DNA of 64,000 nucleotides from Cyanophora paradoxa CCMP329 (Eukaryota > Plantae > Glaucophyta), in assembly GCA_004431415.1 (NCBI GenBank), contig QPMI01000490.1, forward strand, positions 62,001-126,000, in the 5' to 3' direction. Below the pieces are notes generated by a model. That model ran no database searches and was not told the DNA's origin. It was given only the letters and a program-made list of their open reading frames with translations. Every line of letters begins with the position of its first letter. Within the stretch, counting starts at the first letter, position 1. Positions 15,801 to 64,000 of the stretch are shown in pieces. The translations under genes were made by a program, and so were the position numbers.

Positions 15801-18800
15801 GAAGGCGCCGTCGGGGGCCCCAAGCAGCTGGTACCAAAAGCCCCAGTCCGAGCCGACCGCCACGTTGTTCGTCTGCGCAGCGGAATCAGCGCTGTCAACT
15901 GGTACGGTGACTAGCAAGCAAAAGGCGCACGATGTAGTTGGTCGGGTGCACGATCCAGAAGCCGGCGGGTTGCTGGTCCGTGTTGAGCATCGAGAACGAG
16001 GGGATGTTCGTCTGAACGCGAAAGCGTGAGTGAGAGAAACGCAGATCTAGAGCGGGTCCGCTGCGGCCGCGCACGATGATAAGGTTCTGGTCGATGACGT
16101 TCTCGCGCTCGACGCCATCCTCGAGGAAGTATGCGTGGCCCTCGATGCGGTACGCCACGTTGCGGGTGACGCGCAGGCGGTTGACGCCGTGCACCGCCAC
16201 CGCGCGGTTCCATGAGCGGTGGATGGCGCACGAGCGCACGTACGACTGCGTGGTGTCGCCCATCATGTGGAAGTGGATGGCGTAGCGGCCGAGCGTGAAG
16301 GCCTGGCCGACGTCGAAGAACTCGACGTTGTCCATCCGCGTCGTCGACGCCATGCCCATCGAGGCCATGCTGTGGATCAGCATCGTCGCGCCGAAGCGGA
16401 ACGCGAGCGTCGACTCCGGGTCGCCCCGCACGAGCACGTTGCGCGTCAGGTACGCCACCTCCGCACGCTGCGGGCGAAGCGCGTGAGAAATAGAGAGGAA
16501 AAGCTTTGAGCAGCGATTGCAAATGGCGCGCCATGTCGATGGTCTTGCCGCCGAACATGTCGATGACGCCGAGGTGGCGGTAGTTGAGGGGGCGGTCGAG
16601 GACGACCGTGCGGCGGTCCTCCGAGACGGCGACGATCGCGCGCTCCTCCGACTCGGCGTCCCCGTCGAAGGAGCTCGAGGCGACGGCGACGCGGCCGCCC
16701 ACCTCCCAGTCCACGGGCTCCTTCAGCGTGATGTTCGCGTCGCCGGGCCAGACGGTCGCCGCCAGCTGCGTCCACGGCAGCCGCGGCGTGCCGTGGAAGT
16801 CGAGGACGCCGCCGCGCTGCGCGATGACCTGCGGCGGGCAATCAGATTTCAGAGCTCGACAGAAGCCGGTTCCGAGCGCTGGGACGGCGGGGCTGACCTT
16901 GGCGCCGTACTTGGGGATCTCGTAGGAGAGCGGCGTGCCGTAGAGGGTGACGGTCGCCTTGTGCTGGTAGGGCTTGCCCTCCGTGCCGATCTGGAGGCGC
17001 GCGTGGTGCCCGCGCAGCATGATCTGCGGCAGGCGTCAGCTGCAGCTTCCGGTCTTCGCAGCGACGGCTGCTCTCTGAGCGCACCCACTCGGCGCGGAGC
17101 TCGTAGTCGCCCTGGTCGTCGAAGATGAGGGAGCCCTCGATGAGGAGGAGGCGGAGCTTGGCGGGCGAGCAGTCGAGGAGGACGGTCTGGTGCGCCAGGA
17201 TGACCACCGAGTCGCCGTCCGCCGGCGGCGCCGCGCCGCCCCAGGTCGTGCGGCGGCTCCAGAGGTCCGCGAACGCGTACGTGGCCGACGCGTCAGCGAG
17301 GCCCTTGCCGGCGACGAGCACCGCGGGGGCCATCGGCATGCCGTGGCTGGAGGCGCGCGTCACGCAGACCACCTCGGTCTCCGTCGCGCTCTGCACGTCG
17401 CAGACGGTGCCACCGGCGAGGGTCACGTTCGGCGCGGCGCCGGCGGCCGAGAGGAGGCCGGTGCCGGTGAGGGTGATGACCGTGCCTCCCGCGGTGCTGC
17501 CGCGGTTCGGCGTGACCGAGACGACGGTGGGCGTGGACGCCGCCGAGTAGGCAAACGTCACGTTGGTGAAGGTCGCGTTCACGGCGGCGGCCTCTGGGCT
17601 GTTGAAGACCGAGACGACGATCCGGCAGGCGCCGGTCGTGTTGCTAGAGACGCGTCCGGTGACGCAGACGAGCGACGTGTACGAGGACGAGGTGACGCGG
17701 CAGGGTGCGCCGCAGATGGTGACGCCCGTCGCGTTGTGGGCCGCCGGGTCGAAGCCGTTGCCGTCGATTGTCACCGACTGGCCGCCGGCGAACGAGGACG
17801 TGGCGGGGGCGATGGCGAAGACGGAGAGCGGGACGGTGAAGCGGGTCGTGGGCGCGACGGTCGCGTAGCCGCGGTCCGCGAAGAGGACCGAGACGCGCTG
17901 GCTGGGGCCCGCGCGGCCGGCGCTCAGCGTGCACGAGATGGCGACGGTGGTGGCCGCAGTGGGCGTGCACGACGAGGCGCCGACGGTCACCGCAATGTCC
18001 GAGAGGCTCCAGCTGCTATCGTTGCCGTACGTGCCGATGATGGTGATGCTGACGCCTGAGAAGCCCGATGAGGGCTTGACGCTGGTCACGGCCGGCGTGT
18101 AGTTCGCCGAGTACTGGAAGGCGGGGCCAGCGACGGAGACGCCGTTGACGGCGACCTGCACGGGCGCCGCGCCCGCCGAGCCGGAGGGCAGCGTGCACGT
18201 CAGGCTCGTGTAGGCGGCGGCAAGGACGGGGCAGGCGCGGCCGCCGACGGTCACGTCGACGGCGGACGCGTTGGGCCCGAAGCCGGTGCCGTTGATGTGC
18301 AGCACCGCCCCGCCGTTCGTCTGCGATCGCGAGGGCGTCAGGCTAACATGGACTGAAAAAGACAGTCAAAGAGGCGCACAGAGCCGGCGTTGCGGAAGGT
18401 GCCATCGAAGACGGGCAGCCCGAGCGACGTGACGGAGAGGGCGTAGCCAAAGCTGGTGGCCGGCTCGGGCTGCGCGGCGAGGCCGACGGTCTCGACGAGG
18501 ATGACGACGGGGAAGGCGCCGGCGACGCCGAGGCCGAGCGTGCATGCGATGGATTCATTGGAGGACGACTCGACCGCGCAGGGCGCAGTGCCGATGCTGA
18601 CGGAGAGCGCGCCGGTGGGGAAGAAGCCCGAGATGGTGAGCACATCGCCGTTGGCGCCCGAGGCGGGACTGACGGAGCTGATCTGCGGCGTGGTCTCCGC
18701 CGCGATGGTGACGGTGCAGGCGGTCGCGGCGTCAGAGCAAACAACGGCGGCGCCGGCGACGGACGAGATGGCGTACGCGCCGGCGGCGGCGGCGCCGACG

Positions 18801-21800: not shown

Positions 21801-23924
21801 CGGGGGGCTGGAGGAGGCCGCCGTCCGTCCGGTCCATCGCGAAGACGAGCGACTCGACGGCCGCCTTCACCTCGGCCGCGGAGGCGTTGCCGGGCACGGT
21901 CGCCGTCAGCGGCCCGAGGGCCAGCTGCACGGTGCCGTTCGCCGTCCCGTTCGCGATCGTGATCGTCTGCACGTCGTTCCTGGGCGCCCCGCGCAAGTAC
22001 ACGCGCTGCGCGGCGGCGAAGAAGAGCTTAGGAGCAGAAGATACACACGGAAATCGAGGAAATCGGGGACCTGGCGCTCGTCGACGGCGTTGGCGGCCTG
22101 CGCATTCGTGTAGAGCGGCGCGCCGACCCGCACGGCGACGTCCTGGTTCGAGCCGCCGCTGCCCTGCTGCTGCAGGGAGCGCAGGAAGAGCCGCTCGCCC
22201 TTCTTGAGCGCCATCTTGGGCGACGCCTGCGCCGGGCTGGAGGCGTAGGTGCGGGGGGCCGTCCACGTGTCGACGCGGGCGGCGCGGGTGAGGTTGGCGG
22301 GGCTCGGGCCGGCCCACAGCTCGCTGGCGTCGTCCGAGGACTGGAAGAAAGTGTACACCGCGTCCATCGGGGCCGTGAAGTAGGCTCTGAGGGGGAGGAA
22401 GAAGAGGAAAGTGAGGGGCAGACTTCAAGGATGGAAGAGGGGAGATCGAGGGCCGCACTCGATGAGCTGGCCGGTGTTGACGCCCCAGTCGCGGGGGGCC
22501 TCGAAGGCGGCGGGGAGGAGGCGGGAGACGTTGGGCGAGGCGGGGAAGCGCCGGTCGGCCTTGAGCGCCGAGAGGCCGCCGCTGACGCCCGTCCAGCCCC
22601 GGAAGCGAACGCCGCGGGAGCCGGGGAAGAGCTCGCCCGCCCCCGCCACGAACGCCGCGCCGGCCCGCGTCGTGCACACCACTGCGCGCCGCGCCCGTCA
22701 GCGGGGCGCGCGGGGAGGGGGGGCGGAAGAGCGCAGTGGGGGTACCGTGGTCGTAGGTGGAGAAGGTGACGTCGCAGGGGAGGCCGCCGGCGGTGACCTC
22801 GTTGTCGGCGGGGACAGGCGAGAAGCCCGAGCCGCGCACGGTCAGCGAGAGGCCGCCCCGGACCGACGCCGCCGGCGCCGAGAGGCCCGTGATCGCGGGG
22901 TACACCTGCCGAAGGCATCAGAGCGGCGCGGCGCGCGCGAGCGGACGAGCGGCCGGGGAGCTGGAGGGCGCGCCTGGAAGGTGTAGAGGCGGGCCTGCCC
23001 ATCCATAAGGAACTCGTTGCGCGCCGGCTGCGCGTTGCCGTACTGGCGCGCGACCTGCGCCGACGCGTAAGCGGACGAGGGCCAGGGGGGGTAGGCCTAG
23101 GGGGGCCCTGGCGCTGGGCGGGCCTGGAGGGTGAGGTTGTAGGAGCCGGCGGGGGAGGGCCCGGCGGTGGCGGCGAGCTTGTCCCAGGTCGGCATCTCCG
23201 TGTAGGGCGCCCCCGAGCTCGCGTTGAAGAGCCCGAAGCGGCCCTCGCCGGCGTACAGCCCGATAATGTCGTTCACGTCGCTGGGGCAGAGGTTCTATGA
23301 GGGCCGGGCCCGGGCCCGGATCAAATTCGATCAGAAGGGCGTACCGGATGGAGAGGTTGGAGCCGCGGAGGGAGACGGGATCGCCAAAGCTGCCGGCCTG
23401 CGGCTCGATCGAGGAGAGCGCCGGCGTGTTCCCCTCCCGGTACGAGAACGCCTGCCGCCGCGTCAGCGCGAGATCGGCGCGGAACGGGAATCCGAGCGGG
23501 CGCACGCTGAAGAGGGTGGCGACGGAGGACTCCTTGCCGTCGACGATGACGGTGACCGGCACGCCCTCGGCGGGGGCGCTCGGCGCCGTCTCGCACACGA
23601 CGCGCGTGCTCGTCGTGTAGTAGGGGAGGACGCGGCAGGGCGCGCCGCCCACAATGACGCCGTTCGAGCTCGTGAAGTCGCCGTTGTACTCCGAGAAGCC
23701 GTTGCCGACGATCGTCAGGTACGTCCCGCCCGCGACGGAGCCCGCCGTGGGCGTCACGTAGCCGATCACTGCGCGGCGCGGTCAGGTCAGGCGGCCGGCC
23801 GCGGGGCGCGGGGGGCGGGCGAGCGGCGGCGCGCACTCTGGGCGGATGTGACCGCGGTCAGGGCGAGCGCCAGCAGCAGCACGAGCACCGCCGCGGCGCC
23901 CCGCGGGCGCGCTAACCGCGTCAT
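9170..23924 (-). CDS. PKHD1L1: Fibrocystin-L/PKHD1L1-like giant type I membrane protein (signal peptide, IPT/TIG repeats, PA14, two G8 domains, parallel beta-helices, TM), multi-exon
   Basis: ATG at 23924 gives signal peptide MTRLARPRGAAAVLVLLLALALTAVTSAQ. TIG repeats (VTPTAGSVAGGTYLTIVGNGF; VTPNRGSTAGGTVITLTGTG). PA14 motif YTFFQSSDDASELW. G8 domains DLWSRRTTWGGAAPPADGDSVVI (about 17270) and FRWSDPKSWP (about 14240). Beta-helix GQAFTLGRYAIHFH..SYVRSCAIHRSWNRAVAVHG. TM AAVVAGIVVGAVAAALVVGL at about 9770-9830. The symbol denotes family likeness, not proven orthology. Confidence 0.88.
9857..9886 (-). repeat. (CAG)10 trinucleotide repeat encoding poly-Gln in the juxtamembrane stalk of the PKHD1L1-like protein
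   Basis: (CTG)10 run on the + strand, in frame with PAGASGVNQAAVVAG on the - strand. Confidence 0.7.
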
Positions 23925-25492
23925 GGCTGGGGGATCCCCGCTCTCCGGGACGCCGCGACCACGCGCCGCGCTCCTCCGGGCTTCCTTGCTTCAAGTTCGA
24001 ACGCTTTCCCGGCCGATGTGGAGCTGCGCTGAGCTGGCGCTGGATGCTGGAGGCGGGGCCTAGCTCTATCTCCGGCGGCGGCTGCCGTCCGGAGGCGTAG
24101 GCGACGAGCGCAGAGGCCTAGGGAGCGCCGAGAGCCGCCACTCGGTACGAAGGCGCAGATCTGCGCGCGTGCGCGAGCATCTCGACGTCAGCCCCCGCGG
24201 CGCGAGCGCTCCTCGCGTGCGCATATCGCCCCGCACCTTCCGATTGTCACGCAGATGAGATCGAACGCGCCGATCCGCGTCCGAAGGCCGCCCGAGCGCG
24301 GCTTCCACCCAACACCACCCACCCGTGCGCGAACGAATCGCCTGAGAGCGCTGGTGCTGCTGCCGTGCGGGAAGCGACGGGCGCTGCTGCGATCGATGCC
24401 TTGGAAGAGAGCGAATGATGCCGATGCGCGCCGGATCGTAATCGACTCGGCCCGAGGCGCCTCGCTGGCGGTCTCTCCGCGCCAAGCAGGCACTCGGAAG
24501 AGCGCATGATGAACCGGCGAACAGAGGCCTGCACTCGGCGTTCCTCCCCCCCCCCCCCCCCTCGCTCGGAGGTGTGGACACGTGTTCGAAGTCGCGCGGC
24601 CAGCTAGCGCCACGGGGGTGACGACTCTCACTGACGAGACCGCGGCGCAGCGAAAGCGCATGCGCAGGCGACGGCCAAGCAGCCGGCTCTGTCGCTGATG
24701 CTATATAGCTAGCCTGCGGATGGCGCGGCGCCGGCAGCGCGGATGTGGCGCGTTGCACGCGTGTACCCCAAGAGATCTTCTTCCCCCGGAGGGGCCGAAT
24801 TGATTGATCGCGCGCAACCTTGTGCTTCTCCGCAGAGTCCGTACCCGCAGGTGACCGAAGTCACGCGCGTGCGCAAGCTGCCTGCAAGGCTGCAACCAGC
24901 GCACTGCCGCAGTGCGCCTGCAACTTCCAAGATATAGCTACTTCCAGCTTGCAGCCTGGAAGCGCCCGGAGGCGCCGGACAGCTGTGAGTTCGCGCGGCT
25001 TCCGGAGCTCTGTCGGAGGTGCGCAGCACCTCAGCGCGTGCCGAGGTCCAGCAGCAGCCAGGTGCAACTTCACGTAACCTCGCTTACAAAGCGCAAAGGA
25101 TCGCGCTCGAGCCTCGTTGGGTGCGCCGAGGCTGCATGCATATGCGCGCGAGGCGCCGCGCGCGCCGCGCATGCGCAGTTTTTTGACCCCCCACGTGCAC
25201 TGCAGCTGGTAGCTAAGGCGGTCGGAGGCTGCCGAGGAGCGCGGCTGAGCAGAGGAGGCTTGTGGCCCAATTGCAACGGGCGCTTGAAGCTTGAAGTGCT
25301 GGGTTGGCGCGCGCCGAGACTGCCGGTGCGCGTGGTGCGCCGCTGCGCGCGCCTCCCACCACGTGCGCGTGCAATCATCGGTAGCTAACAGAGCCAAAGC
25401 CCCGCAGGAGCTGCCGAGGAGGCGGCGGGTGGCCCAGCGATCGGGGGCCCGGCGGCCGTGCGCGAGGCGCTCCTGCCAGCTAGGGCGCAGCA

Positions 25493-40748: not shown

Positions 40749-43700
40749 TCAACGCGGCCCCGCCGCCTTCGCCCGCAGCCGCGTCACCTCCTGCGCAGCC
40801 CCGAGGTGCGGTCAGGGCCGACGGCCGCGGACGAGGCCGGCGCGACGCCGGCGCAGCCCCAGAGGCGAGGTCAGGGCCGAGGGCCCGGGGGGCCGGGGCC
40901 GGACGAGGCCGGCGCGACGCTGACGCTAAGGATCTGGGGGGCCGCCGCACCTCCATGAGGGCGCGGGCAGCGTCGGCCTCGCCCTGCGCCCGCATGACGA
41001 CGGAGAGGTTCTGCATCGCCGCCAGCACGTTCGGGTGCTCCGCCCCGTGCGCCCGCCTCAGCAGCCGCAGCGCCTCCTGCGAGGGGTCGAAGACGCGTGA
41101 GGAGGGGGAGGGCAGAGGGGGAGGAAAGGCGGGCGGACCTCGAGGAGGGGGCGGGCGGCGGCGGTGTCGCCCTGGGCGTGCGTCAGGTTGGCCAGGTTCA
41201 GCGTGTACGCCGCCACCGCCGCGTGCTCCGCCCCCAGCGCCGCCCTCTTCAGCCCCAGCATCTCCTGAGGGAAGGAGGAGGTCATGATCAGCCGAACGCC
41301 GGGGGAACGATCAGCGGCTGATCGCGCGCGCGCCTGGTACGCGGCGCGGGCGGCGGGGACGTCGCGCTGCTCGAGCAGCAGCGCCGCCAGTGCCTCGAGC
41401 GTCGTCGCCACGTCGGCGTGCGCCGGGCCCAGCGCCTTCTTCAGCAGCCGCAGCGCCTCCTGCGCGGGTCGCTCTCAGGTTCCAGAGGGCCCCCAAGAAG
41501 GCGAAGGCGCCGGCGCGCGCGCCTCGAGGACGGGGCGGGCGGCCGCGTAGTCCTTCTGGGCGTACAGCAGGCCCGCCAGGTTCTGCATCATCCGCCCCAC
41601 GTCGGGGTGCTCCGGCCCCAGCGCCTTCTTGAACACCCGCAGCGCCTCCTGCAAGGGCGACGGATGTCAGATAGGACTTTCGCGGAGGCGCGGGCGCGCG
41701 CGGGCGCGCGGGGCACCTCGTAGAGGGGCCGGGCGGAGGAGAGCTTTCCCTGCGCGTGCAGCAGCTGGGCGAGCCGCTGCGTCGTGTTCGCGACGTCGAG
41801 GTGGTCCGCCCCCAGCGCCTTCTTCCGCAGCCTCAGCGACTCCTGCGGAGCGGCGGGCGTCAGGCACGGGCGGCGGCCGGGTAGGCGGGCTGGCGCCGGC
41901 GGGCGCGCCTCGAGCATGGTCCGGGCCCCGGCGGCGTCGCCCTGGTCCTGCAGCAAGAGCGCCAGGTTCTGCAGCGTCGTCGCCTGCTGCGGGTGCTCCG
42001 GCCCCAGTGTCTTCTTCTGCACCCGCAGCGCCTCCTGCATGCGCGGCGTTGAAATCAAGAAAGCGAGAGGAAGGAGGAAGGCAGGGGGCCGGCACCTCGT
42101 ACAGGGGCCGCGCCGCCGCGAGCTTGCCCTGCGCCTTGAGCGCCAGGGCCAGGTTCTGCATGGTGCCCGTCACGTCCGGGTGCTCCGGCCCCATCGACTT
42201 CTTCAGCAGGCGCAGCGCTTCCTGCGCGGCGCGGAGAACGATCAACGATCTAGAGAGGGAGGGGGGCGGCGGGGGGCGCCGGCCGGACCTCGAGGAGCGG
42301 CTGCGCCGCCGCGTAGTCCCCCGCGCCGATCCGCATGCTCGCGAGGTTCTGCATCGTCTTCGCGACCTGCGGGTGCTCCGCCCCGTGCGCCTTCTTCTGC
42401 ACCCGAAGCGCCTCCTGCGCAGGCCGGTCCGAAGCCGTCAGCGGTGCGGGGCGAAGGGCAGGGAAGCAGATCTAGAGGCCCCGGTGGGGAGAGTGGCTGC
42501 GCGAGCGCGCGCTCGCCTCGAGCATGGGCCGCGCGGCGGCGGCGTCGCCCGTGGCGTAGAGCAGCAGGGCCAGGTCCTGCATGGCGGAGGCTACCTCGGG
42601 GAGCTCCGCCCCGCCCGCCTTCCTCTGCAGCCGCAGCGCCTCCTGCTCGGAAAAGGTCAGAGCTCGGAAAAGAGCGCAGAAGCGACGGGGCGGCGCGCCA
42701 CACCTCGTAGAGGGGCCGGGCGGCCGCGTAGTCGCCCTGGGCCTCGTGCAGGTTGGCCATCTTCTGCATCGCCCTCGCCACGTTCGAGTGCTCGGGCCCC
42801 AGCGCCTTCTTGTAAAGCTGCTGCGCCTCCTGCGCGGGGCGGCCGGGGCGGCCGGTCACCGACACGGACGAAGCCTAGACCTAGGGCGGGGAGGAGGAGG
42901 CGGCGGGGGCGGGCCTCGAGCAGGGGCCGCGCGGCCTTGAAGTCGCCCTGGGCCTTGAGCAGGGTGGCCAGGTTCTCCAGCGCCAGCCCGACCTCGGGGT
43001 GCCCCGGCTCCAGCGTCTTCCTCCGCACCCGCAGAGACTCCTGCCCGGCCCGCGCGCGTGGGACTCCGGCGCGGATCCGGAGAAGAAGGGGCCGGGCGCC
43101 GGGCGCCGGTCGCACCTCGTAGAGGGGGCGGGCCCCCGCGAAGTCGCCGGTCGCCATCCGCAGGTTCGCGAGGCTGAGGGCCGCCGCCGCCGCGTCCGCG
43201 TGCTCCGGCCCCCTCAACTTCGTCTGCAGCCGCAGCGCCTCCTGCGCGACCGGAAGTCAGCGGGCGCGGAGGGGCGGGTCGGCAGAGCGCGCCTGGAGGA
43301 ACGGGATGCCCTCGCCGGCGCGGCCCATCGCGTCCAGGAGGACGCCCGCCCGCCGCAGGTCCGCCGGGTCCGCCTCGTCGCTGCCCTTGTGCAGCGCCGC
43401 CGCGAGCCGCCCGGCCGCCTCCGCCGGGCGCCCGCTGGCGAGCCAGAGCCGAGCCGCCTCCGCCTCGTCCAGGTGCCGGAGGACGTCGGGCCGGCACAGG
43501 ACGTCCGCGAGGCGCTCCGCCGAGCCCGGCCCGCCCCGCGCCAGCGCCCAGGGCGCCTCCTCCGCGCGCCGCTGCGACGCCGGCCGCCGCGCGAAGAAGG
43601 CGCCCAGGCTCGCGTGCATGGCCGCCCGCTCGCCCTCCACCGGCGCCAGCGCGCCGCCGGCGCCCCGCCGGCCTCGCGGGCCAGGCCGAACTCGAGCTCG

Positions 43701-51466: not shown

Positions 51467-54400
51467 ATGGAGGACGGGCAAGCGCACGCGAGCACCTCTA
51501 GCGCAGAGGCACCGCCCAGCAAGCGCCTTCGCCTTCATTCGGTCCCTGCGCCGGCGGAGCCCGCGGCCGACGGAGAGAAGAACGCGTGCATCAATATCCA
51601 AGAAGGCGCGAATGGCCTCCAAGACTCATCAGGTGCTGCATTGCGATTGTCAATATGTAACACTAAGGCCCGCGGGCGGCGCAGGGAGACCGGTACCAGA
51701 TCCTGCAAGATTTGAAAAAATCGATCCCGCGGCGCAATCCGACGATATGGCTGTGGATGCAGAAGCTGCGCCTCCGAAGATCGTTGCGAATGCAAGGATC
51801 CGGACGTGGTCTGCCCTTGACTAGATTATTCGTGATCACTCGCGCCTCACGATTGCAAATTCGCTGTCAGGATCGCGCGCCTGAATCCGGGAGCGAAGGT
51901 TGCTGACCTGCAGGATGCCCTGCGGATGGCCGCAGGGCTTCTGCCCCTCGTCGACGTCAGCACTCGCAAGGGGCACCATCGCCAGCGCACCCTCCGCGAA
52001 TTGTGCCGCCGCTTCCGCCACTGCCGCCGCGCCCGGCTTTTGAAATATGCTCTTAAGCTTGTGTCCACGCCGATTGCGCAGCTTGATTCCGACGGCGCTG
52101 CAGCAGTACTTAGTCGATGGGGATACGGAGCGGGTGCCTTGGAGCCGGGGCCGCGCCGGAGCCTTCCTCCAAGACCTCCACTCCGCCCACCAGCAGTGCC
52201 TCCAGAGCCCCGTGCGCCGCTCTTCCCCGGCCCGCGTTCGCGCCTCTAGATCTACTGCTGAATGCGGCCCCCGGCCATCGGGATCTGGCCCGACGTCGAC
52301 TTTTCGATTCGCCACCAGTACGGCGATGCAATGGTACCCGCGCGCTCCGGTCCGATCCCACAGAGCTCGCGATATTCTTACGCGCACGCGCGCCACGCAG
52401 ATGGCGTACGCCCTTCTCTACGCCTGCAGCGAGGGGGACCTCTTTGCGGCCCTCGCGCTCGCCCTCTTCGGGGCCAAGTGGGGCGTGAACGTCACCGAGT
52501 TGAGCTATACGGCACCGCAGCTGTTAGCGTGCAGGCTGCGGGACCTGGACGACGTGAAACCTGATCACGTCCCGTCGAAGTTGGTTTCGATGTGCGCGCG
52601 CGGTCCGATCGCGATCGCGAGGCCCCCGACGTGCGGCCGCGGGCCGGTGCGCAGGCTGGAGACAGCGCTGGAGGCTCTGTGGGAGGCCGAGCAGCTAGGA
52701 CCAGTTCGCGTCTCGCGCTTTAACGCCAACCGCTTCGCCCTCGACGTCCTCTACGCTGCCGGTGCGCCCCAATTTAAAACTTGCTCATGGTCTGCGAAAT
52801 TCGCCTCTCCAGTGTAGCGCAAAAAACCTTCCGCAAAATTAAATCTTTATCAGCAGCGCGAATTGGCAAACCATCATGGTCTTAACTTGAGCGGAACCCG
52901 GCGGATGCGCAGACGCCTGGCATGATTTGCCAGCGGAGACGGCGAAGGTGCTGGAAGAAGCGAAAAGGGTGGCGGACCTTTGCATTCTCTGTTCAGCCTG
53001 GCGGCGCTTCATTATGCGCCTCCTGCGAGAGGGGCCGAGCCAGGATGTGCTCCCTTACGTGATTGCTCTCCTAGCGATTTACGGTGGTACCGAGGCGTGT
53101 CGCAGCGCCCCGCCGCCCGTGGCCGCCCGCCGCTTTAATTTGAAATCACTGAGTAAACACCTCATAAACGTTAACTTCTCGTTTACACAGGAGCGCGATC
53201 ACGCGATGCCATTGCTCCAGCGCCTGGGACCCCCCGCCATCATTGCCCTACTGGGGATTTTCGAGATCCTTTCTCCCTTCGTTCGCGATCGCCTTCTATG
53301 CGCCGCCACCCCACGCGTACGAGAATTCGAAATTCAGTGCGCAGAGCCGCGGCACGGCGCTGCTGCGACAACGTGTGCAGACGGCGCTGCTGAAGGATAT
53401 GGCGCTGGAATTTTATGAAGCGCCGGCAGTCGGAGAAGCGCTTCTCGGCGCCGTCACGCGGGCCGCGGGGGGCCCCCAAGCGGAGCTCTTCCTCGCTGAT
53501 GCGCTGCAGGAAGGAGCGCCCCTGGCCGTCCTCCTGCACGCGCAGGACATTCTTCGCGCGGGCATCCCCGGCGTGCGCGCCTTCGCCGCCACAGAACGCG
53601 CGGGGCGTCAAAACAAGCCCCTCCTGCCGCCGCCCTTTCTCGCCGAGCTCGAGGCTGCCGCCAGTGGGCGGCCCTCCAAGTGCCCCGCGGACGTCGCGGC
53701 CGCCCTCCTCGGAGCACTCCTCGCGCACCGCCCGACCCGCGCTGCCCTTTCCTCCGCGGCGTGCCCCGCCGATATTACCTTCGATATCACCGCCGGAATC
53801 ACCGATATCGTCGTCAAAGCCGACATCCGCGACAGGCAGCAGCGCGCCCTCCACAACTTGTGCAGCCATCCCTGCCCCGCGGTCGCGGCCGTCGCCTGCA
53901 TTGTCGCTGCTGACGGATCCGAACTGCAGCCTGGCGCAGGCCGCGGCTCCGGAGTTGCTCGAATGCCTGGCGGACGGGAACCGGCTGTCCCGTAGCCGAG
54001 ACGACGTCCTTGTACATGCCTTTCTCGTGAACCTCTACCGCGCCCACCGCCAGAGTTTCACGGTCAAGAGCCCAGTGCGCCGCACCGTCGCACCCTTGCC
54101 CTGCAGCTGCGCATGCGGCTTACTAATTGAAACGCACGTACATGCGATGCACGCTTCTGGCGAAAAGTACGGTGAAGAATTGGTGCGGCCCGCCGATGTC
54201 GGAATTCGAATATATATATACTGTAATATTTAATTAATATAAATTTTAATATTATGCCGCTCAGAAATCGAAAAGCCTCCTGCACGCCTGCGCAACGGGA
54301 AGCCTTTTCGCGGCTCTCGCACTCGCCCTCTTCGGAGCCAGATGGGACACCAAGGACGCGGCGACGGGCCTCAACGCTCCAGCACTCTTCGTTCGACAGC

Positions 54401-57400
54401 TTCAGATGCAGGCAGACGCTGATGCCGACGTTGCAATAGGTCACTTGAAGCTCGTTTCGCTGTACGTGTGGCGAGGCGGCGAGCGCTGCGGCTGGATCCC
54501 GATCGATATCCTGATGCGCGGGGCGCATGGCAGGCTTCAGGCTGCATTCCAACACATTTACAAGGAGCTCGAGGACAAGCGCTTCCCGGAAGTCGAGTCG
54601 GAAAGCTTCTCGCGGGCCAATGCAAATCGCTTCGCCATAGAAGTCCTCTGCGCCGCCGGTGCGCGCCGCCCTCGCGCTTCGAAACTCGAAGGACGGGGCG
54701 CGAGCAGCGCTGGCGCAGGCGCCTGGCGCGACCTGCCAGTGGGGACGCGGGGGGCCCGGCGTGAAGCGCGACGGATCCTGGGCTTGTGCGCGAAACAACC
54801 CGTTTGGCGGAGCTTCGTCTTGCGCCTCGTGAAGGAGGGGCTGATCCAGGCCGTGCATCCTTATATTATCGCTTGCTTCGCCATTTCCGACCGCGTAAAG
54901 GCGCGTATTTATTCTCCCTTTTTCTTTCTCTCCCGCTCCCCTCTTCTCCCGCTTTAAATTTGCCAGCGACCCGCTCCACACGCAGGAGCGCGAGTTTGCG
55001 CGTCCGGAGCTTGAAACCCTTGGGCCGTCAGCCGTTGACGGACTACTGGCCCTCTTGGAGGTACACTCAATCTCTGTTCGCCGAGGCTTTTACAGACATT
55101 TGCCCATGGCCACTAAGTATTTTGCGGACGCCCGTTCGGCGCCGCGCAGGATTTTCGCCGCCCCAGGTGTCGGCAGCGGGTGAAGGCAGTGCTGCTATCG
55201 CTTGCGAAAATTCCGGCAATCAACTTCGAGGCGCCCGCCGTCGGGGAAGCGCTTCTCGACGCCGTCACGCGGGCTGCGGGAGGGCCCCAAGCGGAGCTCC
55301 TCCCCGCTGAGGCGCTGCAGGATCCGGAGGGATCAGCCCTGGCCGTTCTTCTGCAGGTCATCCTCCGCGCAGGCATCCCCGGCGTGCGTGCCTTCGCCGC
55401 CACCGAACGCGGGAGGCAGCGGACCAAGCCCCTCCTGCCTCTGTCCATTCTCTTTCACCTGCGAGATGCGGCAAGCGGGCGCGGGCAGACCTCCAAGTGC
55501 CCCGCGGACCTCGCGGCCGCCCTTCTCGACGCGCTCTCTGTGCACGTCCCGACCCGCGTCGCTCCTCTCTTTGCCTTTGTCCCGCCCGTCATTTCCGAGC
55601 TCCACCGTCTCGCCGAACTTTCAGCCCTTGCAAACGAGCAGGGGCTGCTGCAGGACCAGCTCCCGGACGCCATCGAGCAGATGCTGCTGCAGAACCCGGA
55701 GCTACAATTGCTAGATGTGAGATATCCGCAGGTGCAGCTGTCGGGGGCGTGGGCCCTGGACCAGCTGGAGGGGGCGCTGGCCTCGCTGCACCTCGACTCG
55801 GGAGACGGGCTCGAGACGGCCCTGCGGCGCGCTGGCGTCGTCGACCTCGCCCTCCGCCTCGCGTCCGCTGCCCGCGTTCCCTGAATAGCAATGGCGCTTT
55901 TTGTTGCAGCTGCCCAACGCTACCTTGTACGCGTGCAGCTCGGAGATCGCGGCGCTCATGCGCCCCTTGGAACGCCTTCACCTCGCGGCTCCAGATTTGG
56001 ATGTCCTCTCCTGTAAGGTGAACGGCCGCGGCCTGCGCGCGCGGTCCGCCGCCACGTGCGCCGCGCCTGACAAGAGAAATCGAACAGCCGATGAGCTTCT
56101 TGTGGCGCTCGATTGTCGCGGGGGCGTCGGTGGCGGCGGCGGCGGGGCTCTTCGCGGCCGTCGATTTCGCTAAGCCCCTGAAGCCCTTCAAGTGCGGTCC
56201 CTATAGCTATCCGCTGTATAACTGCGCTCCCGTCCGCTTTGTTGCGTTTTACATTTATAATTATACGCACACGTGTACGTATACGCGGCGCAGTCGGCTG
56301 CTCTTGGATTTCGTGCGGGAGCCGGCGCGCAACAAATTCTCGGCGACAATTGCGCGCCTGCCAGGCCTGTTCGACATTCATCTCCGGCGGGAGGCGTGCA
56401 ACAACCCCGATGCGGTACTGTCCCGCACCCGCGAACCCTTTTTAACTTCCCGCCATGGCCAGGCGATCGTGAGCGAACATGTGGAAGAGTCGCGGGTCCC
56501 ATACGGCGACACAGACCCGTTCCTCTTCCTCAATGTCTCCCGGGGTTCTCTGATCAGTTCGAGGCGAGTTCATTCATATGCCGCACGCGGCCGCCCGCGA
56601 AGTATATATGTACTAATTGTGCCGCCTCATCGATTTTCGCGGCGCGGCCGTCTGCGCAGCTTCGGGAACAAAGACCTTGAGGCGGCGCTCCTCGCGATCG
56701 GGGGGCCCAACCCCCAGGCCGACCCCGCTCTCCCGACGCCCGCACTTTCCGCCGCTCCGTCATCGATCTGATGGTTCGAAGGGCCGGCCTCTCTAGCTCG
56801 ACGGACCGGGCCCGGGCCGGGGCTGTAGCTGTAGCTGCAGGTGACGCGGGGCTGCACAGGTGGCATTCGAAGGAGAACCTGCGGTCGGCGACGGGTTGAA
56901 GCGGGAGTACCTGACAAAGCTGGCGCATGAGTTTTTGGACCCTAACACGGCCCTATTCTGCCGTCTCGGCGACGCTGGCGGCGTCTACTATCCCTCCACG
57001 GACGCGCGCGTTCATGATTTCAGCGATCAGCCCGGCCACCACACGCCCCTTCCCCGTCCCGGCCGCCTCGAGTCTGAGCCAACATTTTCGCACTTGGCTG
57101 TCTAAACTCTGATCGGGAGTGCCGCGCAGCATGTTTCGCCTCTGTGGGTGGGCGATGGGCGCCGCTTTCGCGACCGGCGCAGTCTCCCCCGTCTACGTTC
57201 GTTCTGCCCCGTCCGGCCCCGCTGAATGCAGTCCCGCCCGCCCCGCCAACCATTTTGCGCATGCTGCAGTTCCCGCAGTGCCTTTATCGGTACCTTCTAG
57301 ATCTGCCGCGGGCGCGGTCGCAGACGGGCCTTAAGGACCTCGCATCCATCGAGCCGAGCGTCGCGAAGAGCTTCAAGGAAATGCTGGGGCGGGGCCTGGC

Positions 57401-57861
57401 GGAGCTGGGGCTCGAGCATCTCGTTTTTATGGTCGAAGAAGACTTCTTCGGAGAGCGCCGCACCGTTCCGCTGCGCCCCGGCGGCGAGCAAGAGCCCGTC
57501 ACCGACGCCAACAAGGCCCGCGCGCGCCCTCCGTCCCCAAATTCCACAATCGGGCGCCCCGGGGGCCCTCACGTGCCACGTACGCGTGCACAATCGTAGA
57601 AAGAGTACGTTCGACTGGCAGCGGACTACTACATTGTTGGGCGCGTCCGCCAGGAGGCTCGCCCACTGCCCGCCATGCCCCGCCCCCCCGCCGCTCGCGC
57701 TGTTCCTCGAATCATTTCCGCAGCTGGATGCGCTGCGGGAGGGGCTGCGGCTGGTGCTGCCCGCAGCTGCGTCGCGGATGTTGAGTTCAACCGAGCTGCG
57801 CATGATCGTCGAGGGGCTCCACACAATCGACGTGGAAGACTGGCGACGCAACACTCGCTAC
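51467..57861 (+). pseudogene. HECT-type E3 ubiquitin ligase gene, interrupted within the HECT domain by the AT-rich element
   Basis: HECT N-lobe VAFEGEPAVGDGLKREYLTKLAHEFLDPNTALF..YYP, VPLRPGGEQEPVTDANK|KEYVRL, LSSTELRMIVEGLHTIDVEDWRRNTRY. A stop (TAG 57868-57870) then falls inside the foreign DNA. The C-lobe with the catalytic Cys is absent from the window. Confidence 0.85.
52401..55570 (+). repeat. Intragenic tandem duplication (about 52401-53760 vs about 54265-55570) in the HECT gene N-terminal region
   Basis: LLYACSEGDLFAALALALFGAKW vs LLHACATGSLFAALALALFGARW. NANRFALDVLYAAG vs NANRFAIEVLCAAG. EAPAVGEALLGAVTRAAGGPQAEL..ILRAGIPGVRAFAATER..SKCPAD occurs in both copies, with matching intron positions. 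Confidence 0.88.
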
Positions 57862-58146
57862 CACACATAGTAAAATGCGGAGTTTTAACCCTCGGCTTAT
57901 CTTAATTGATTTTGTTGATATATCTCGTATATTCTATTTCAATCAATCGTTAATCTGTGTATATCTTATCGAATATTCATTTATTTCGATTATTTTGTAT
58001 TCTTTTCGATATTTTATCGTAAATTTCTCTTATTTTCCGATTAGTCTTACTGAGTGAATCGATAATCTGTATATGTTTCCGAATAATATAACTGAATCTC
58101 AATTAGATCTTGCCTCTGGTTAAAACTCCGCATTTTACTATGTGTG
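57862..58146. repeat. 285-bp terminal palindromic unit with perfect 29-bp inverted arms
   Basis: CACACATAGTAAAATGCGGAGTTTTAACC (57862-57890) and its exact reverse complement (58118-58146). The interior is degenerately symmetric. Confidence 0.95.
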
Positions 58147-58397
58147 ATTGGTCTAAAAGTTAATTGATTTAATCGATATTATATTCATGTACTTTCTCGA
58201 TTAAATTTAATTAAATTTAATTCATTTAATCGGAAACATATCGCTAAACTCGATTAAGATCCATAAATGATTCATTTGTTTATATTAACAAATCGATCTC
58301 TTATTGAATCCAATCGTAATTATACATGAAACTTATATGTTTTTATCATGTTTTAATGATTCTAAGGGGGGACCCTTAGGATTTTTGAAATAATTGG

Positions 58398-58488
58398 GTG
58401 TGACAGGTGTGACAGGTCCATCCAAGGAAAGTCCTAGTGAGAAATTGATTTTTAAAATCCACGGATAGACCTGTCACACCTGTCACAC
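58398..58488. repeat. 21-bp perfect inverted repeat built from tandem GTGTGACAG 9-mers
   Basis: GTGTGACAGGTGTGACAGGTC (58398-58418) and GACCTGTCACACCTGTCACAC (58468-58488). Extends to 26 bp with one mismatch. Confidence 0.95.
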
Positions 58489-58525
58489 ATACCATATTCA
58501 GTAAGGACCTCATATATTGTTAAAA

Positions 58526-58835
58526 TCTCAGTGTTAGTTGGTGTAGTTGATTCAAATGTGATCTTAGGAATGTGATTTAAAATCTTTCAGGCAGCATTTA
58601 TTTGTCAGGCATTAAATCCATCGATTTTGACAAAGTATTTTATTTTGGCAAAGTCATTGTTTGGATCAACAATGAAATTTGAATTATAGAAAAGTTTTCT
58701 AAAAAGGTGCCTGACAATGCCTGACATACTATATAAGTGCCTGACAACTATATTATAGTGCCTGACAAACCATATATGGTAATACTATATGATATCTTCT
58801 ACTTTCTCAGTGTTAGTTGGTGTAGTTGATTCAAA
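58526..58835. repeat. 31-bp direct repeat pair enclosing a TGCCTGACA iteron-like cluster
   Basis: TCTCAGTGTTAGTTGGTGTAGTTGATTCAAA at 58526-58556 and 58805-58835. TGCCTGACA at 58708, 58718, 58738 and 58759, with an inverted copy at 58603-58611. Confidence 0.92.
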
Positions 58836-59258
58836 AAATGCATTTATACTCTGATTCATTGTTATTTCCTGTGAAATTTGAGTCAACTCAACCCACTTAG
58901 TCAACCCTTGCATTGAATTCGTAACAAAATCCATATACTTTTACTACTTTTACGATTAATATGAGTCAACCTTGAGTCCACTTAAATATAAATATAATAT
59001 AATAGGGGGAATCAAGGGGAGATGCTGAGTGTTATTGTAAGGAAATCGAATAGTATTCGAAATACTTGACATTGCTTAATGTAGGGTGCATTCATATTTC
59101 GGCTACATCATACAGTAGAATTCTATTGTAACAAAAGCTACTGTAGAAAGAAAATCATTGTAGAAAGCTATTGTAGGAAAGGATATATTATATCCTTTTT
59201 TAACGATTGCCATTGTAATAAAAAAGGTAAATTACCCTGTTTATCATTATAGAAACCA

Positions 59259-59656
59259 TCAAAACGGGAATCTATCATGTTTATGTCTCTCAGTCTTCTC
59301 AAATGTTAAGAAATTCATTGTTTTATCGATCTCATCTGCTACTGATTGTGTTTTATGCTGAGCTTCTTTACCACAACTGAATATATCAATTGCTAACATG
59401 CCTTCATTGGAATAACAATGAGCTGTGCAATGGCTTTCATCTAATAGCAGAACCAATGCAAAACCAGGAGGTGATAGTTTGCCATCAATATCTCACAATG
59501 CTTATGAACAATCCTAATACCTTGTCTCAATACTGCTTGTTCAAGGGTTCCCATAATCCAATTACCTAGGAAGCTAACATGCTCATATCCTGTTGCTATA
59601 GCTGATTTAGCTTTGTAATCAAGCATAACATGAAAGCCTCTGTATTGAGTCTCCAT
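59259..59656 (-). CDS. speD: Prokaryote-type (short, pyruvoyl-dependent) S-adenosylmethionine decarboxylase proenzyme; one apparent 1-nt deletion at about 59487
   Basis: Joined ORFs give METQYRGFHVMLDY..IVHKHCEI(F)DGKLSPPGFALVLLLDESHCTAHCYSNEGMLAIDIFSCG. This has the ESH self-cleavage motif and the DIFSCG motif. About 132 aa. Confidence 0.85.
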
Positions 59657-59685
59657 TAAGAATACCTTAGAAAAATTAATTAAAC

Positions 59686-59958
59686 CTAATCGAACCTAAT
59701 GCAAATATCCCTATACTCTACTCTAATTGATGAAGTAGCCCTTTTCCTATAAGCCTGAGAGTGCTTTTTGTTGCATTCCCTACACCCTGATCCCTTCACA
59801 TGATTAAAGGGATAGGTAAGGATCACCTTATTACACTGCAAACATCTAACAGATACTTTCTCTTGAGCTTTGATGTAATGTGTCTCACTGTAATCGAATT
59901 TATCTTTACCATGAACTGTCATAGCAGCATCAATAAACTTTTTTGTTTTACTATCCAT
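59686..59958 (-). CDS. Small Zn-ribbon protein (DUF723-like domain typical of viral homing-endonuclease-associated proteins)
   Basis: FIDAAMTVHGKDKFDYSETHYIKAQEKVSVRCLQC..PFNHVKGSGCREC. Confidence 0.7.
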   Translation of the reverse strand: MDSKTKKFIDAAMTVHGKDKFDYSETHYIKAQEKVSVRCLQCNKVILTYPFNHVKGSGCRECNKKHSQAYRKRATSSIRVEYRDICIRFD

Positions 59959-59980
59959 ACTCTATATATAACCAATATTC

Positions 59981-60810
59981 TTATGGAGCAGTATCCTGCC
60001 CAAAAATGGGGAAATATCGATTTGTGCCATAGTATTCAGCATAGGTATTCTGCCTTGCAATAAAATCGGTTCTCTCAGCATATAATACACACTTGTAGAT
60101 ACCAAACTTGGTGGCTCTCACCAGAAACTGATAGTCTTCCAAACCGAAATTGACTCCATGATAAGCAATACCAAAATTATCATATGGGGTGATCACAACT
60201 GCAAAATTAGGAGTTCCACCCTCCACTTGACATACAGCATATACATCTGGTGGAATATCCACAACAACCTTGTAGTGGTCACCAATCTCAACAAGAGAAT
60301 CTACTACTGCTGTCTGTTCATTTACTACAATGGGGAATATTTTGATTATATAGGGGCATTCATGCTGGGGACATAGGTTCGAATTCTTGTATTGGGATCA
60401 ATGGGATTGGGTTGATCATTCACAAATAAAGGCGCTCCAACAGCCCACCAACCCTAAGACCATCACCAATATAAGCTCCCCCGATTTGCAGTTAATAGCT
60501 CCCGACCTAGATTCAAAAGAATAAGTAGAAAGAGGATCTCCATAGCTATCTGGGTCTCCATAATGAGCAGAAAAGTTTGCATTGGTAACAAGTAGCTTAG
60601 TTGTCTTAACTATTCCATTATTTTTATCACATCTGAGTTCCTGTAATCTCAGTTTATGGGTGGAACCAAAGGTGTTCATTGTAGGTTGGACCTCTGTTGA
60701 TTGGAGACCCTCTACATCATCAAAAGTAGCATGCTGCAGAACATGGTTTGCTGGTGCAGCTAATGATAGCTGAGGTGTAATAATTCGTTCAAGTGGGGTT
60801 GCTCAGCCAT
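59981..60810 (-). CDS. Fibre/spike-like protein paralogue 2 (four apparent 1-nt deletions in homopolymers)
   Basis: Adding one base at 60795-98, 60478-82, 60444-46 and 60353-56 yields one ORF: MAEQPPLERIITPQLSLAAPANHVLQH..LRLQELRCDKNNGIVKTTKLLVTNANF..SGGAYIGDGLRVGG..DIPPDVYAVC. It is colinear with paralogue 1. Confidence 0.65.
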
Positions 60811-60832
60811 TTTACATTAAAGGATATATCTT

Positions 60833-61686
60833 TTATGGGGTTGGGTCATCAATTACATCTAATTCTTGGTAAAATCCTGTTGTGAATATATCAGCAACAT
60901 TTACCCCACGAAGTGCTGATACAGCTGCTATATCTGTTCTCAGTCCCATAATCATAGTATTGTATACTCCAACCTCAGTGACAAACAGATCATAGGTAAA
61001 TGTCAAATTGTTATAAACACAATATCCTCTGCCAAAATGGTTCGAAGCTTGAACAAAGAATAAGTAGTTGTGTCCTGGTTGATTATTATTGGCTCTACAC
61101 ATGGAAAGCATTGCAGTGGGAAGAGGAATATTTCTTCTTACTCGATCAGTTCCTGTAATGGAAACTAATTCCGAATTCTCAAGAGTTACAGAGGATGCAA
61201 CATAGAAATGCAAAAAAGGTTGCTGTGCAACAGGTGTGTAGAAACGAATTCGTTGTGGGTTCTCCACATTTTGTTCGAGAGTATCTGGACATCATTGTAG
61301 GAAACAGATGAAGATAGCTGACCTGAAACTCTGCAGCCACCACCAATAAATGCTCCTCCTGATCTCACAGTTACAGCAGCAGTGTTTTTATCATAATCAA
61401 GGGCTTTCAGATCAACACTGTAAGCATCAGGACCTCCATTAGTAGGCTGAAAGAAGTTAGCATTTGTGACAAGAAGTCGAGTTGTTTTAACCACACCAGA
61501 ATTCTTATCAGCTCTCAGCTCTTTAACTCGAATAATCGAATTTTTATCAAAGGAGTTACCATTGGAATTGGGTCTCTCTGTGGATTCTAAACCACGAACC
61601 TCATCATTAACTTCATGCTGGCGAAAGTGCATTGCAGGGGATCCAAGGGAATATATTGGAAGTTGAACTCGATTATATTCACCCAT
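60833..61686 (-). CDS. Fibre/spike-like protein paralogue 1 (one apparent 1-nt deletion at about 61287)
   Basis: ORFs 61186-61686 and 60833-61267 join as NDV(P)DTLEQNVENPQRIRFY. Contains IRVKELRADKNSGVVKTTRLLVTNANF and TAAVTVRSGGAFIGGGCRVSG. Confidence 0.68.
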
Positions 61687-61725
61687 TGCTTCTTTTACTA
61701 AGAAGGAAAGAAAAATAAACTACCA

Positions 61726-62031
61726 TCAAGCCAAAGTGATTAAATTCGATCCAAGGGATTGGTAAACAGTTGAAAGAACTTGCAGGTTGGACGTCATTGC
61801 TTTAATGTTGTTATCACACTCATTGTATTTAGCAACAGGGTCACCATATGCAGATTTGGCAAGGACATTAACCAAGAGGTTTTTATACTCATTGACAACT
61901 GGTGAGAGCTTATTGGTTTGCTGAATCGTTTTTTCAACTGTTTGTAATGCGTTTACAAGGGTGATTGTATCGAAAGAAAGCGCAACAGGCTCAGTAGAAT
62001 AGGTGGTTCCACCAAGTGGATAGGTTGCCAT
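61726..62031 (-). CDS. 101-aa hypothetical, largely helical viral protein
   Basis: Intact ORF whose ATG directly follows the TAATAA stops of the fibre gene. Amphipathic or coiled-coil pattern. Confidence 0.65.
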   Translation of the reverse strand: MATYPLGGTTYSTEPVALSFDTITLVNALQTVEKTIQQTNKLSPVVNEYKNLLVNVLAKSAYGDPVAKYNECDNNIKAMTSNLQVLSTVYQSLGSNLITLA

Positions 62032-62034
62032 TTA

Positions 62035-64000
62035 TTATACTGAGATATTTTTAATTTGATCTATTTGACTTTGGAGATTCTGACATGTTTGTGTTAAATC
62101 TTTGCATTTCTGGGATAATTCTTTAACGGCTTCTATGAGAACTGGAATTAAACCTGTGTATTCGAGAGCTAAGTAGCCATCGTCTTGTTTTGCTCTCACA
62201 ACTTCTGGTATTACCTGTTGCACATCTTGCGCAATTAAACCTAATCTTGTTCCATCTTTTTCACTTCCGATTCGTTTAAAACTCACTCCTTCTAATTTCT
62301 CTATTGCTGAAAGAGCGCCAGTTATCTTTTTAATATCGGTTTTGTATCTTCTATCGCTACCTTGTCCGAGATAGTTTCTAACCCACATGTATCCATCATC
62401 ATTTATAAATGCTACATGTGTATCCCACGTATTTCTAAATTCTACTACTGTTGTTGCATGTCCTCTAATATATGTAGTTGATGCTGAACCGAAATATATT
62501 CTTGAATAACCTTCACTTGAAGTAATCCAAGTTCCGGTTGCCCAAATGGTGCGTTCATCTTTACTAAAAACGTTATCCCAACTTATAAAACCATTTGCTG
62601 GGGCTGTTCTTCCTTTTTCTTTTGTCCATCCAATCATACCAATGTGACATCTCCCTTTCCTTGCAACAAATCTTACATGGGAGAATGTATCACAATGGAA
62701 AGAAGTCCATGTTAAGCCATCATGCCAGTCTGAATCGTAATTATTTGAAACGGCTTGGTAGCAATTCACCCTCATAATGTGATGCCACCTCCCATTTCGA
62801 TAGCCTCCAATATCGAAATATCTGCAATTTGTCCAACACATATACTGAACATGACATGTTTTCATATTGCCAGGGACTTCAATTTGCGCCCAACCACCAT
62901 CTGTTTCATCGCCTGAAATGTTACTATAAAATCCATCGACTGGATTTGTGTAGGTTGGTGTCCAACCTGTTGTCCAAGATCCACTAAATGATAGACCGGG
63001 GGAGCCTGTCCCACTCCAAGTATCAAAACTGGTAATATTTCCAATTGAATTAGTGACATCTGTTAACGACAGATAGGATGTAGGAATAGTAGGTTTACTA
63101 TAAACATTATTCCAATGAATAAAACCGGTAGAACCACCATGTGAACTACTATTAGCTCGATCGTGTGTAAAACCAATACCCATAATGTGAACTCTTCCGA
63201 CTCTCGGATAAATACGGAGGTGAGTAAATCGACCGGCAAGGAAGATTGGGACATTATTAACTCCATGGTGATGGTTATCTACACTACCATCGTGTGGGTG
63301 ATAATTATTTACTCTTGTAATAAATACAATTCCATTTGCTCTAACTCCCCAAATCTCAAAGTAACGGCAAGAATTCCATGGTAAATGTGTTAGGAATGCT
63401 GTCCCATTCACCAATGCGGTAGGTATTGTATACTGAATCCAAGTAGTTGTAGAAACTTCATCATTGCCTTCACTGTTATAGGCATAACTTCCATAATTGT
63501 ATCCTGGATCCCATTGCCACCCACTACCGATTGTCCAAGTTCCGCCCGATGAATGATAAGCACCACCCGCTACTGTGTCGTCGAAACCGTAAAATTTCGG
63601 AATCTCATAACCATTTCTTTTAATGTTGCAACATCTATTGTTGTTGCACCAATGGTGGTAGCGCTTATTGTCGGAACTGTCAAAGTGTTGTTTACCCAAA
63701 GGTTACCATTGTCATAAGACTTCAAAATGGCTGTATCTCCTGAATTTCTAAATTCAATTGACACACCTTCACCATTCCCATACCCTCGAATATATGTTGT
63801 ATTACCACTACCAAACCAAAACCTTGGAATATTATCTGTTGATTTGTGCCAGTCCACAGAATTCACTGTCAATAAACTACCTAATGTATAGGTCGCTTCT
63901 GCTTTTGTTGCATAAGTTGCTGCAAAATCCGGTTGCTAAACACATTGTCCCAACTTACCATTCCAATCTCATTATCTGTTGCTCTCTGTCTACTCCAACC
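62035..64000 (-). CDS. Modular tail-fibre/spike protein with C-terminal peptidase S74 intramolecular chaperone; 5' end outside the window; apparent 1-nt deletions at about 63618-21 and 63933
   Basis: C-terminus SDRRYKTDIKKITGALSAIEKLEGVSF..LGLIAQDVQQVIPEVV..LEYTGLIPVLIEAVKEL plus a coiled coil. Repeated WxNVxSK(P) linkers and duplicated beta-rich domains. Confidence 0.85.

Follow-up and report, generated by a model that had tools for sequence, protein, structure and literature searches.

The end of an AT-rich, probably Polinton-like element interrupts a HECT ligase gene in a Cyanophora contig

A HECT ligase gene and its junction with an AT-rich element

The window analysed here is a 64,000-nt stretch of contig QPMI01000490.1 from the Cyanophora paradoxa assembly. 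Its host side is a GC-rich, intron-rich eukaryotic gene region, and its last 6.1 kb belong to an AT-rich virus-like element inserted into a gene for a HECT-type E3 ligase. The HECT gene lies on the plus strand and continues upstream of 56860. Its last five exons before the break were placed at 56860-57029, 57130-57196, 57270-57515, 57600-57656 and 57724-57862, as judged by Pfam matches, alignment with HUWE1 and a hand-made splice model which, over 56860-57861, leaves an open frame of 226 codons ending in DWRRNTRY. Two exon pieces match the Pfam HECT domain at model positions 57-140 and 157-206 of 306, and the match of the last exon with HUWE1 (7bii) ends at residue 2386 of 2492. No complete C-lobe with the catalytic cysteine was found, about 106 C-terminal HUWE1 residues having no counterpart in the window. 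Read on into the element, the HECT frame gains two further residues before a stop codon at 57868-57870. In HECT ligases, the catalytic cysteine sits in the C-terminal part; since this region is missing, the truncated product would be inactive. The insertion thus lies inside a coding exon and truncates the host ligase, removing its catalytic end.

Base composition changes at the same place. The ten best GC change points within 57000-59000 all fall at 57857-57867, where GC drops from 0.66 to 0.30; overall, GC is 0.686 in the host part and 0.367 in the element part. An earlier note, made from the sequence alone, had proposed an integrated AT-rich virus-like element truncating the E3 gene, with the HECT frame and the composition both turning at 57862. 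The insertion, the frame end and the composition change were all recovered, except that the first element base is more likely 57863 (see below). The observed/expected ratio of CpG is 1.17 for host sequence, against 0.85 for the non-coding end of the element and 0.45 for its coding part; either loss driven by methylation or a composition native to the virus could account for the deficit.

Four of the 24 listed sequencing runs were compared with the window: X1 and X4, tentatively DNA, X10, of unspecified kind, and X15, guessed to be RNA. In each of the first three (hereafter the DNA-type runs), a 7530-nt contig covers 56000-57889 with no substitution and one gap, at depths of 66.7 (X1), 20.2 (X4) and 28.9 (X10), which correspond to single-copy depth. 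This contig halts 27 letters inside the element, as would be expected of contigs built from 31-letter words, which cannot extend further into a multi-copy repeat. Since the junction is crossed at single-copy depth in all three DNA-type runs and the element is multi-copy, the insertion is held to be real and a chimeric join is not favoured. The unbroken junction contig also argues against a common empty allele in X1, X4 and X10, with the limit that contigs drop rare variants. The contigs of run X15 match part of the element and no HECT exon, which has no bearing on expression; among the runs found to contain the stretch, none is recorded as RNA.

Contig depth at 57335-57601 is 1.5-1.7 times single copy in all three DNA-type runs, and one contig of X4 joins 57517 directly to 57721. 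Together, the extra depth and the skipping contig suggest that a close HECT paralog is present. The four introns of the model measure 100, 73, 84 and 67 nt; three are of the GC-AG type and one is GT-AG. This share of GC donors (57030-57723) is unusual and may be genome-wide in the host; no paper confirming GC-AG introns in the presumed host was found in the literature. Further upstream, we observed a short high-depth repeat at 56000-56266 and, before the HECT domain, a local duplication of 338 nt with 78% identity (53417-53741 and 55228-55558), possibly repeated exons of the same gene.

The element terminus and its fold-back

The terminus reads 5'-ACACATAG (57863-57870, plus strand, plus or minus one base). 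Its first base is probably 57863, because a 477-nt contig of X15 begins at this letter (57863-58339, with 12 differences in 477 nt) and another copy differs at 57862. In the same run, this end is joined to two other flanks, diverging before 57863 and before 57860. Taken alone, the DNA runs would also allow an end at 57862. If the end is 57863, the stop of the unique contig at 57889 means that three of its flank bases also occur at another site, as expected for about 50-400 random ends (simulation, probability 0.34-0.59). The left copy of the target-site duplication (TSD) is then predicted at 57857-57862 rather than at 57856-57861, with the length of 5-6 bp given in section 10 of PMC12220804. 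No 6-bp motif is common to the three left-type flanks of element copies.

The first bases of the element are mirrored close by. An inverted repeat pairs 57862-57909 with 58099-58146 (81% over 48 nt, arms 189 nt apart), and the first 28 nt, counted from 57863, pair perfectly with 58118-58145, the arms reaching about 47 nt at 81%. As single-stranded DNA, the stretch 57863-58145 folds into a perfect stem of 28 bp, with -42.4 kcal/mol and a z of -9.1, and none of 200 shuffled sequences folded as well. This terminal fold-back is also present in another copy, as shown by the 477-nt contig of X15, which covers both arms. The terminal inverted repeat (TIR) that the earlier note started at 57862, as one to be met again at the far end, is therefore a local fold-back and uninformative on that end. 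A stand-alone miniature inverted-repeat transposable element of 283 nt was considered and ruled out, as no host sequence follows 58146 and the same short repeats continue.

The fold-back is part of a non-coding end region (57863-59250), a probable TIR of about 1.0-1.2 kb whose inner boundary was placed from repeats and from the divergence of copies. The first 1.39 kb of the element contain no open reading frame (ORF) starting with ATG and longer than 60 aa. Other repeats in the region include a 31-nt inverted pair within 58398-58488 and an exact 31-nt direct repeat at 58526 and 58805. The motif CCTGACA, chosen after being seen, occurs five times for 0.07 expected, with a maximum of two in 500 simulations. 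Other copies diverge behind 58908 (X1 and X15, with nearly the same letters) and behind 59026 (X15); these points may mark the inner edge of the 1.0-1.2 kb TIR or variant copies. An Rfam scan returned a single chance-level match (E 0.49).

Gene content and copies of the element

Six element genes follow, all on the minus strand and thus directed toward the terminus, with no sign of introns, as first noted from the letters alone. The largest, running off the window edge (62035-64000), encodes a modular fibre with at least three galactose-binding-like beta-sandwich modules separated by linkers, a coiled coil and a C-terminal S74 chaperone domain (E 6.7e-17). The third module starts at the window edge. 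The frame of the fibre gene breaks near 63700 and 63935, and a stretch of 555 codons is open. The repeat module of about 155 aa gave 43,790 matches at E 0.001, with relatives up to E 3e-88 among the best 150, and no Pfam match. A fold predicted from 23 sequences is a beta sandwich (predicted local distance difference test, pLDDT, 86), which compares with the Eph ligand-binding domain, a gingipain adhesin and CBM6 at E of about 1e-4 to 1e-3 and TM scores of 0.4-0.56. The module thus resembles a galactose-binding-like beta sandwich, as judged from this model. Elsewhere it is found in other contexts: a 5217-aa protein (P0001) on a 70-kb contig has 11 stretches matching it, two giant-virus-like contigs (L001:8939-10660 and L002:9287-10960) carry it fused to collagen repeats with no S74, and L003 has it joined to a ricin-type lectin domain.

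At 59259-59656, with a frameshift near 59486, lies a homolog of class 1b (prokaryotic-type) S-adenosylmethionine decarboxylase (AdoMetDC, SpeD) with the ESH self-cleavage motif. It matches PF02675 (E 6.5e-10), and its C-terminal piece matches TIGR03330 (E 7e-10). Both pieces align to a single 126-aa protein of a contig labelled GVMAG (L012), the N-terminal one with an E of 0.25 only. The neighbouring gene (59686-59958) encodes a 90-aa CxxC zinc-binding protein that matches phrog_681 (E 2.7e-9) and phrog_559 (E 1.2e-8), corresponding to a repeated domain outside the catalytic part of HNH-type phage endonucleases; the protein itself showed no nuclease domain. A 101-aa orphan ORF (61726-62031) gave weak matches below cut-off only: none of three candidate relatives was confirmed, and a weak TrbJ match lies far below cut-off.

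Between the CxxC and 101-aa genes lie two orphan genes, paralog 2 (59981-60812, about 275 aa, frame breaks at about 60794, 60477, 60443 and 60352) and paralog 1 (60833-61686, about 285 aa, one break near 61295). Compared half by half, they are 42% and 26% identical. Pattern matching in viral contigs gave 25, 73 and 104 hits, none of which was confirmed as a relative; the same holds for 142 such hits in metagenome contigs. In the protein database, none of 237 and 26 candidates reached E 0.001; a profile search of the PDB returned only E values of 0.59-0.99 and no family match, and the best Atlas score of 0.76 is a lead at most. The single-sequence fold is unusable (pLDDT 33.6), and no likeness to the fibre module was detected (probability 0.1). 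Of the gene identifications proposed in the earlier note, AdoMetDC and the S74 fibre are confirmed by these profile matches, and the fibre alone has support as a virion protein. The twin 'spikes' are real paralogs lacking a homolog or an assignable fold, and their label is a guess. Their size would suit minor capsid (penton) proteins, and twin pentons are equally plausible.

In the runs, the element side is broken into many short pieces. Among 1139 such pieces in X1, 435 are at least 99% alike, 356 are 95-99% and 348 are 90-95% alike, and many element pieces match other copies with no difference. Top depths of pieces with 0-2 differences are 4049 (X1), 1845 (X4) and 875 (X10), about 61, 91 and 30 times the depth of the host contig, respectively, contig depth not being a copy number and possibly being inflated by GC bias. 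The plain reading is a family of tens of related copies in which the fibre is more variable. Outside the runs, exact scans for the terminus found no stretch in viral or metagenome contigs, none of ten element ORFs is present by exact sequence in the protein collection, and blastn of the element against 50,697 phage records gave no match.

Four of the six genes (the fibre, both orphan paralogs and AdoMetDC) are frame-broken in the window. The 12 of 31 gap rows drawn from the comparison with run contigs are all single letters missing from the window, and 9 of 11 gap places precede a run of at least two equal letters, compared to a background of 0.29. Frame changes detected by tblastn coincide with contig gaps in paralog 2 and in AdoMetDC, including the one at 59486. 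All breaks seen are single-letter shifts and no premature stop needs to be invoked. False frameshifts of such kind have been described in multi-copy endogenous viruses (PMC10120064). Judged against contigs that represent other copies, the frameshifts are likelier to be, for the most part, long-read consensus errors in a repeat beyond the reach of short-read polishing. It is plausible that the provirus is intact, since the breaks resemble assembly errors. A recent insertion is likewise plausible, given that the HECT gene upstream has kept its exons and splice sites undamaged and that many pieces show no difference from other copies.

Affinities of the element and neighbouring features

Polinton-like viruses (PLVs) offer the closest comparison. 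The element is integrated at several sites, multi-copy and offset in composition from its host, with intronless genes; its fibre with C-terminal S74 is a typical, not a defining, PLV accessory trait. Table S6 of PMC12220804 reports AdoMetDC in 66 of 156 glaucophyte (Glaucocystophyceae) Polinton-like elements. By our own count of the other columns, the same 156 include S74 in 37, HNH_3 in 40, rve in 85, tyrosine recombinase in 0, A32 ATPase in 139, pPolB in 49 and the standard PLV capsid profile in 2. AdoMetDC appears in 4 of 19 taxon rows of that study, most often in glaucophytes, with 10/177 in Cryptomonas borealis, 17/57 in C. pyrenoidifera and 45/706 in Rhodomonas lacustris, and S74 fibres are termed ubiquitous in PLVs. 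The view that this cargo points to an undescribed group is thus not supported: the element most likely belongs to the set of PLVs already counted in protist surveys, and its cargo is not new. What is left to explain is the fold-back end and the two orphan genes.

Other data on the host lineage are in line with this. The host GC of 0.686 and introns of 67-100 nt agree with the 67.6% GC and mean intron of 86 nt given for Cyanophora in PMC6704402. [quoted passage not shown] Glaucophyte elements thus share with ours AdoMetDC, an S74 fibre, HNH-type genes, high copy number and a GC-rich, short-intron host. The comparison is one of gene tables, not of sequences, and no core gene was seen in the window here. 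In the accessible portions of the literature, no account was found of their ends, of a pair of orphan genes or of a knocked-out gene. Nor did the search yield a paper that deals specifically with the ends of glaucophyte PLVs or with AdoMetDC in PLVs, although subscription papers and bioRxiv supplements may contain such data. The accessible main text of PMC12220804 has no match for 'AdoMet', 'decarboxylase' or 'polyamine'. Two 2026 preprints, one pairing DDE integrases with pPolB and the other reporting two minor capsid protein gene copies in some PLVs, do not mention glaucophytes or AdoMetDC in their accessible parts.

Cryptophyte PLVs (Rhodomonas and Cryptomonas, PMC12220804) also have modular S74 fibres, long TIRs and, in some, AdoMetDC, but their fibres carry Laminin_G_3, collagen or avian-adenovirus domains instead of the unnamed galactose-binding-like sandwich. 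The viral class 1b AdoMetDCs of PMC9992855, known from phages and Algavirales, are similarly small pyruvoyl-type enzymes with an ESH motif; those tested there are active, some on other substrates, certain homologs being arginine or ornithine decarboxylases. Halocafeteria virophages and PLVs (10.64898/2026.07.28.741278) show an inverted repeat at the TIR extremity beside the insertion site, with a proposed hairpin. Their ends are tight palindromes (52 nt; search gap of at most 10 nt), whereas here the 28-bp stem encloses about 227 nt and would therefore recreate a duplex end, not a priming hairpin tip.

Canonical Polintons and Mavericks are likewise linear and integrated, and have long terminal repeats together with a short dinucleotide repeat at the terminus. 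Canonical Polinton ends start with AG, a rule that concerns animal-type Polintons only. The element starts with AC (CA if its end is 57862), so the non-canonical start claimed in the earlier note is there; because of the restricted reach of the AG rule, however, it does not separate the element from PLVs.

We therefore consider, with a probability of roughly 0.7, that the window ends in one copy of a multi-copy, AT-rich endogenous PLV inserted by its own integrase. PLV membership is held as likely only, because any capsid, ATPase, polymerase or integrase gene, like the far end and the duplication, would be located past the window edge. Several observations weigh against it. Among the six genes in 6.1 kb, no major or minor capsid protein, A32 ATPase, pPolB, helicase or integrase was identified, and neither the far end nor the TSD lies within the window. 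The nearest relative found for AdoMetDC is on a giant-virus contig (54% over 48 aa) and not in a PLV, and of 11 IMG/VR loci with the fibre module, 5 are labelled GVMAG and several lie beside giant-virus genes. Some pieces near the fibre reach only 1.3-6 times host depth, the high depths are open to the GC bias already stated, and the 12 of 31 gap rows include none of the frame breaks of the fibre or of paralog 1. The junction contigs, with their 27 letters, fall below the 31-letter bridging rule, and one of the junction-crossing runs may be the source of the assembly. The host lineage is judged from GC and intron length.

The absence of core genes could also mean a defective or non-autonomous derivative, one that retains the ends and the accessory genes of a PLV after loss of its capsid or replication genes, or a copy that has truly decayed, and that is moved by helper copies. 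The four broken genes fit this, as do loose ends and joints showing that copies differ in structure, and fragmented PLVs with TIRs and TSDs exist in Halocafeteria (10.64898/2026.07.28.741278). All breaks are nevertheless error-type single-letter shifts and the 555-codon fibre stretch is open, so we regard a derivative as unlikely. A still smaller chance is given to the end of a GEVE (Nucleocytoviricota or related) with terminal repeats. The AdoMetDC and fibre-module relatives on giant-virus contigs, the class 1b AdoMetDCs of Algavirales (PMC9992855) and the GEVEs of Cyanophora (PMC12344493) speak for it; but tens of near-identical copies at several sites are easier to reconcile with an element of 15-40 kb than with one hundreds of kb long, no core gene of nucleocytoplasmic large DNA viruses is present in 6.1 kb, and the same cargo is tabulated for PLVs.

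The end itself recalls a large capsid-less DNA transposon with captured viral genes, either CAC-ended and Transib/Chapaev-like or of the foldback type. CAC is the end motif of Transib/Chapaev-like transposons and would open the element if it began at 57862, and terminal repeats that are complex and enclose a nested inverted repeat would be in keeping. Intronless, tightly packed AT-rich genes and an S74 fibre are viral traits, however, and the end is more likely 57863, which makes a transposon very improbable. Least probable of all is a chimeric join of host DNA with a contaminant phage, which the earlier note had named as the finding that would overturn it. Although the fibre and the HNH-like gene match phage families and the junction contigs are short of the 31-letter rule, the junction is identical in all three DNA-type runs at single-copy depth and the same end occurs at other flanks. 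Moreover, 14 runs under one organism label contain 0.69-0.73 of the words of 56500-60500, a stretch one-third host, and the phage records mentioned above gave no match.

If the element is a PLV, an rve-type (DDE) integrase would have placed a linear viral genome with TIRs of about 1 kb at 57862/57863, with duplication of 5-6 bp of the target. The HECT ligase, deprived of its catalytic cysteine region, would be a null allele, tolerated because close paralogs exist. The fibre would trimerise with the aid of its S74 chaperone, its beta-sandwich modules binding cell-surface sugars, and the AdoMetDC homolog could feed polyamine synthesis during replication, an ornithine or arginine decarboxylase activity being possible as well. 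The internal mirror of the first 28 nt might allow a single-stranded end to rebuild a double-stranded terminus locally, as an origin or an integrase substrate. This duplex-end rebuilding is the weakest step, since a relic of end duplication would look identical. A more far-reaching version, which we put forward only tentatively and as less likely than not, is that of an unnamed, recently mobile glaucophyte virus lineage whose capsid escapes standard PLV profiles (2/156), whose nested end mirrors rebuild the duplex terminus without the far end, and which brings a polyamine enzyme and a new pair of virion proteins, an intact copy being fixed in a living culture with an E3 ligase knocked out.

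These findings do not overturn current views. A single, sharply defined exon insertion, present in several runs of a cultured organism, provides a clean marker for integration chemistry (end sequence and duplication). It shows that, in a gene-dense alga, such elements can be mutagenic by disrupting genes; endogenous PLVs are otherwise mostly counted in bulk. The nested terminal mirror suggests a different, testable way in which such elements could restore an end for replication or integration, and AdoMetDC is an auxiliary metabolic gene that is tabulated for PLVs, with no discussion or test found in the accessible literature.

Away from the junction, the host part of the window holds a very large fibrocystin-like gene on the minus strand (about 9800-24000), with many IPT/TIG and several G8 domains. 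Also on the minus strand, 40940-43260 is an array of diverged exon-intron repeats with a period of about 190 nt and 64-66% identity, encoding units with a GPEHP motif which we take to be kinesin-light-chain-like tetratricopeptide repeats. Finally, a 1.2-kb intergenic stretch of lower GC (0.41-0.46) at 7950-9150 has numerous short palindromes and, at about 8243, a run of poly(A).

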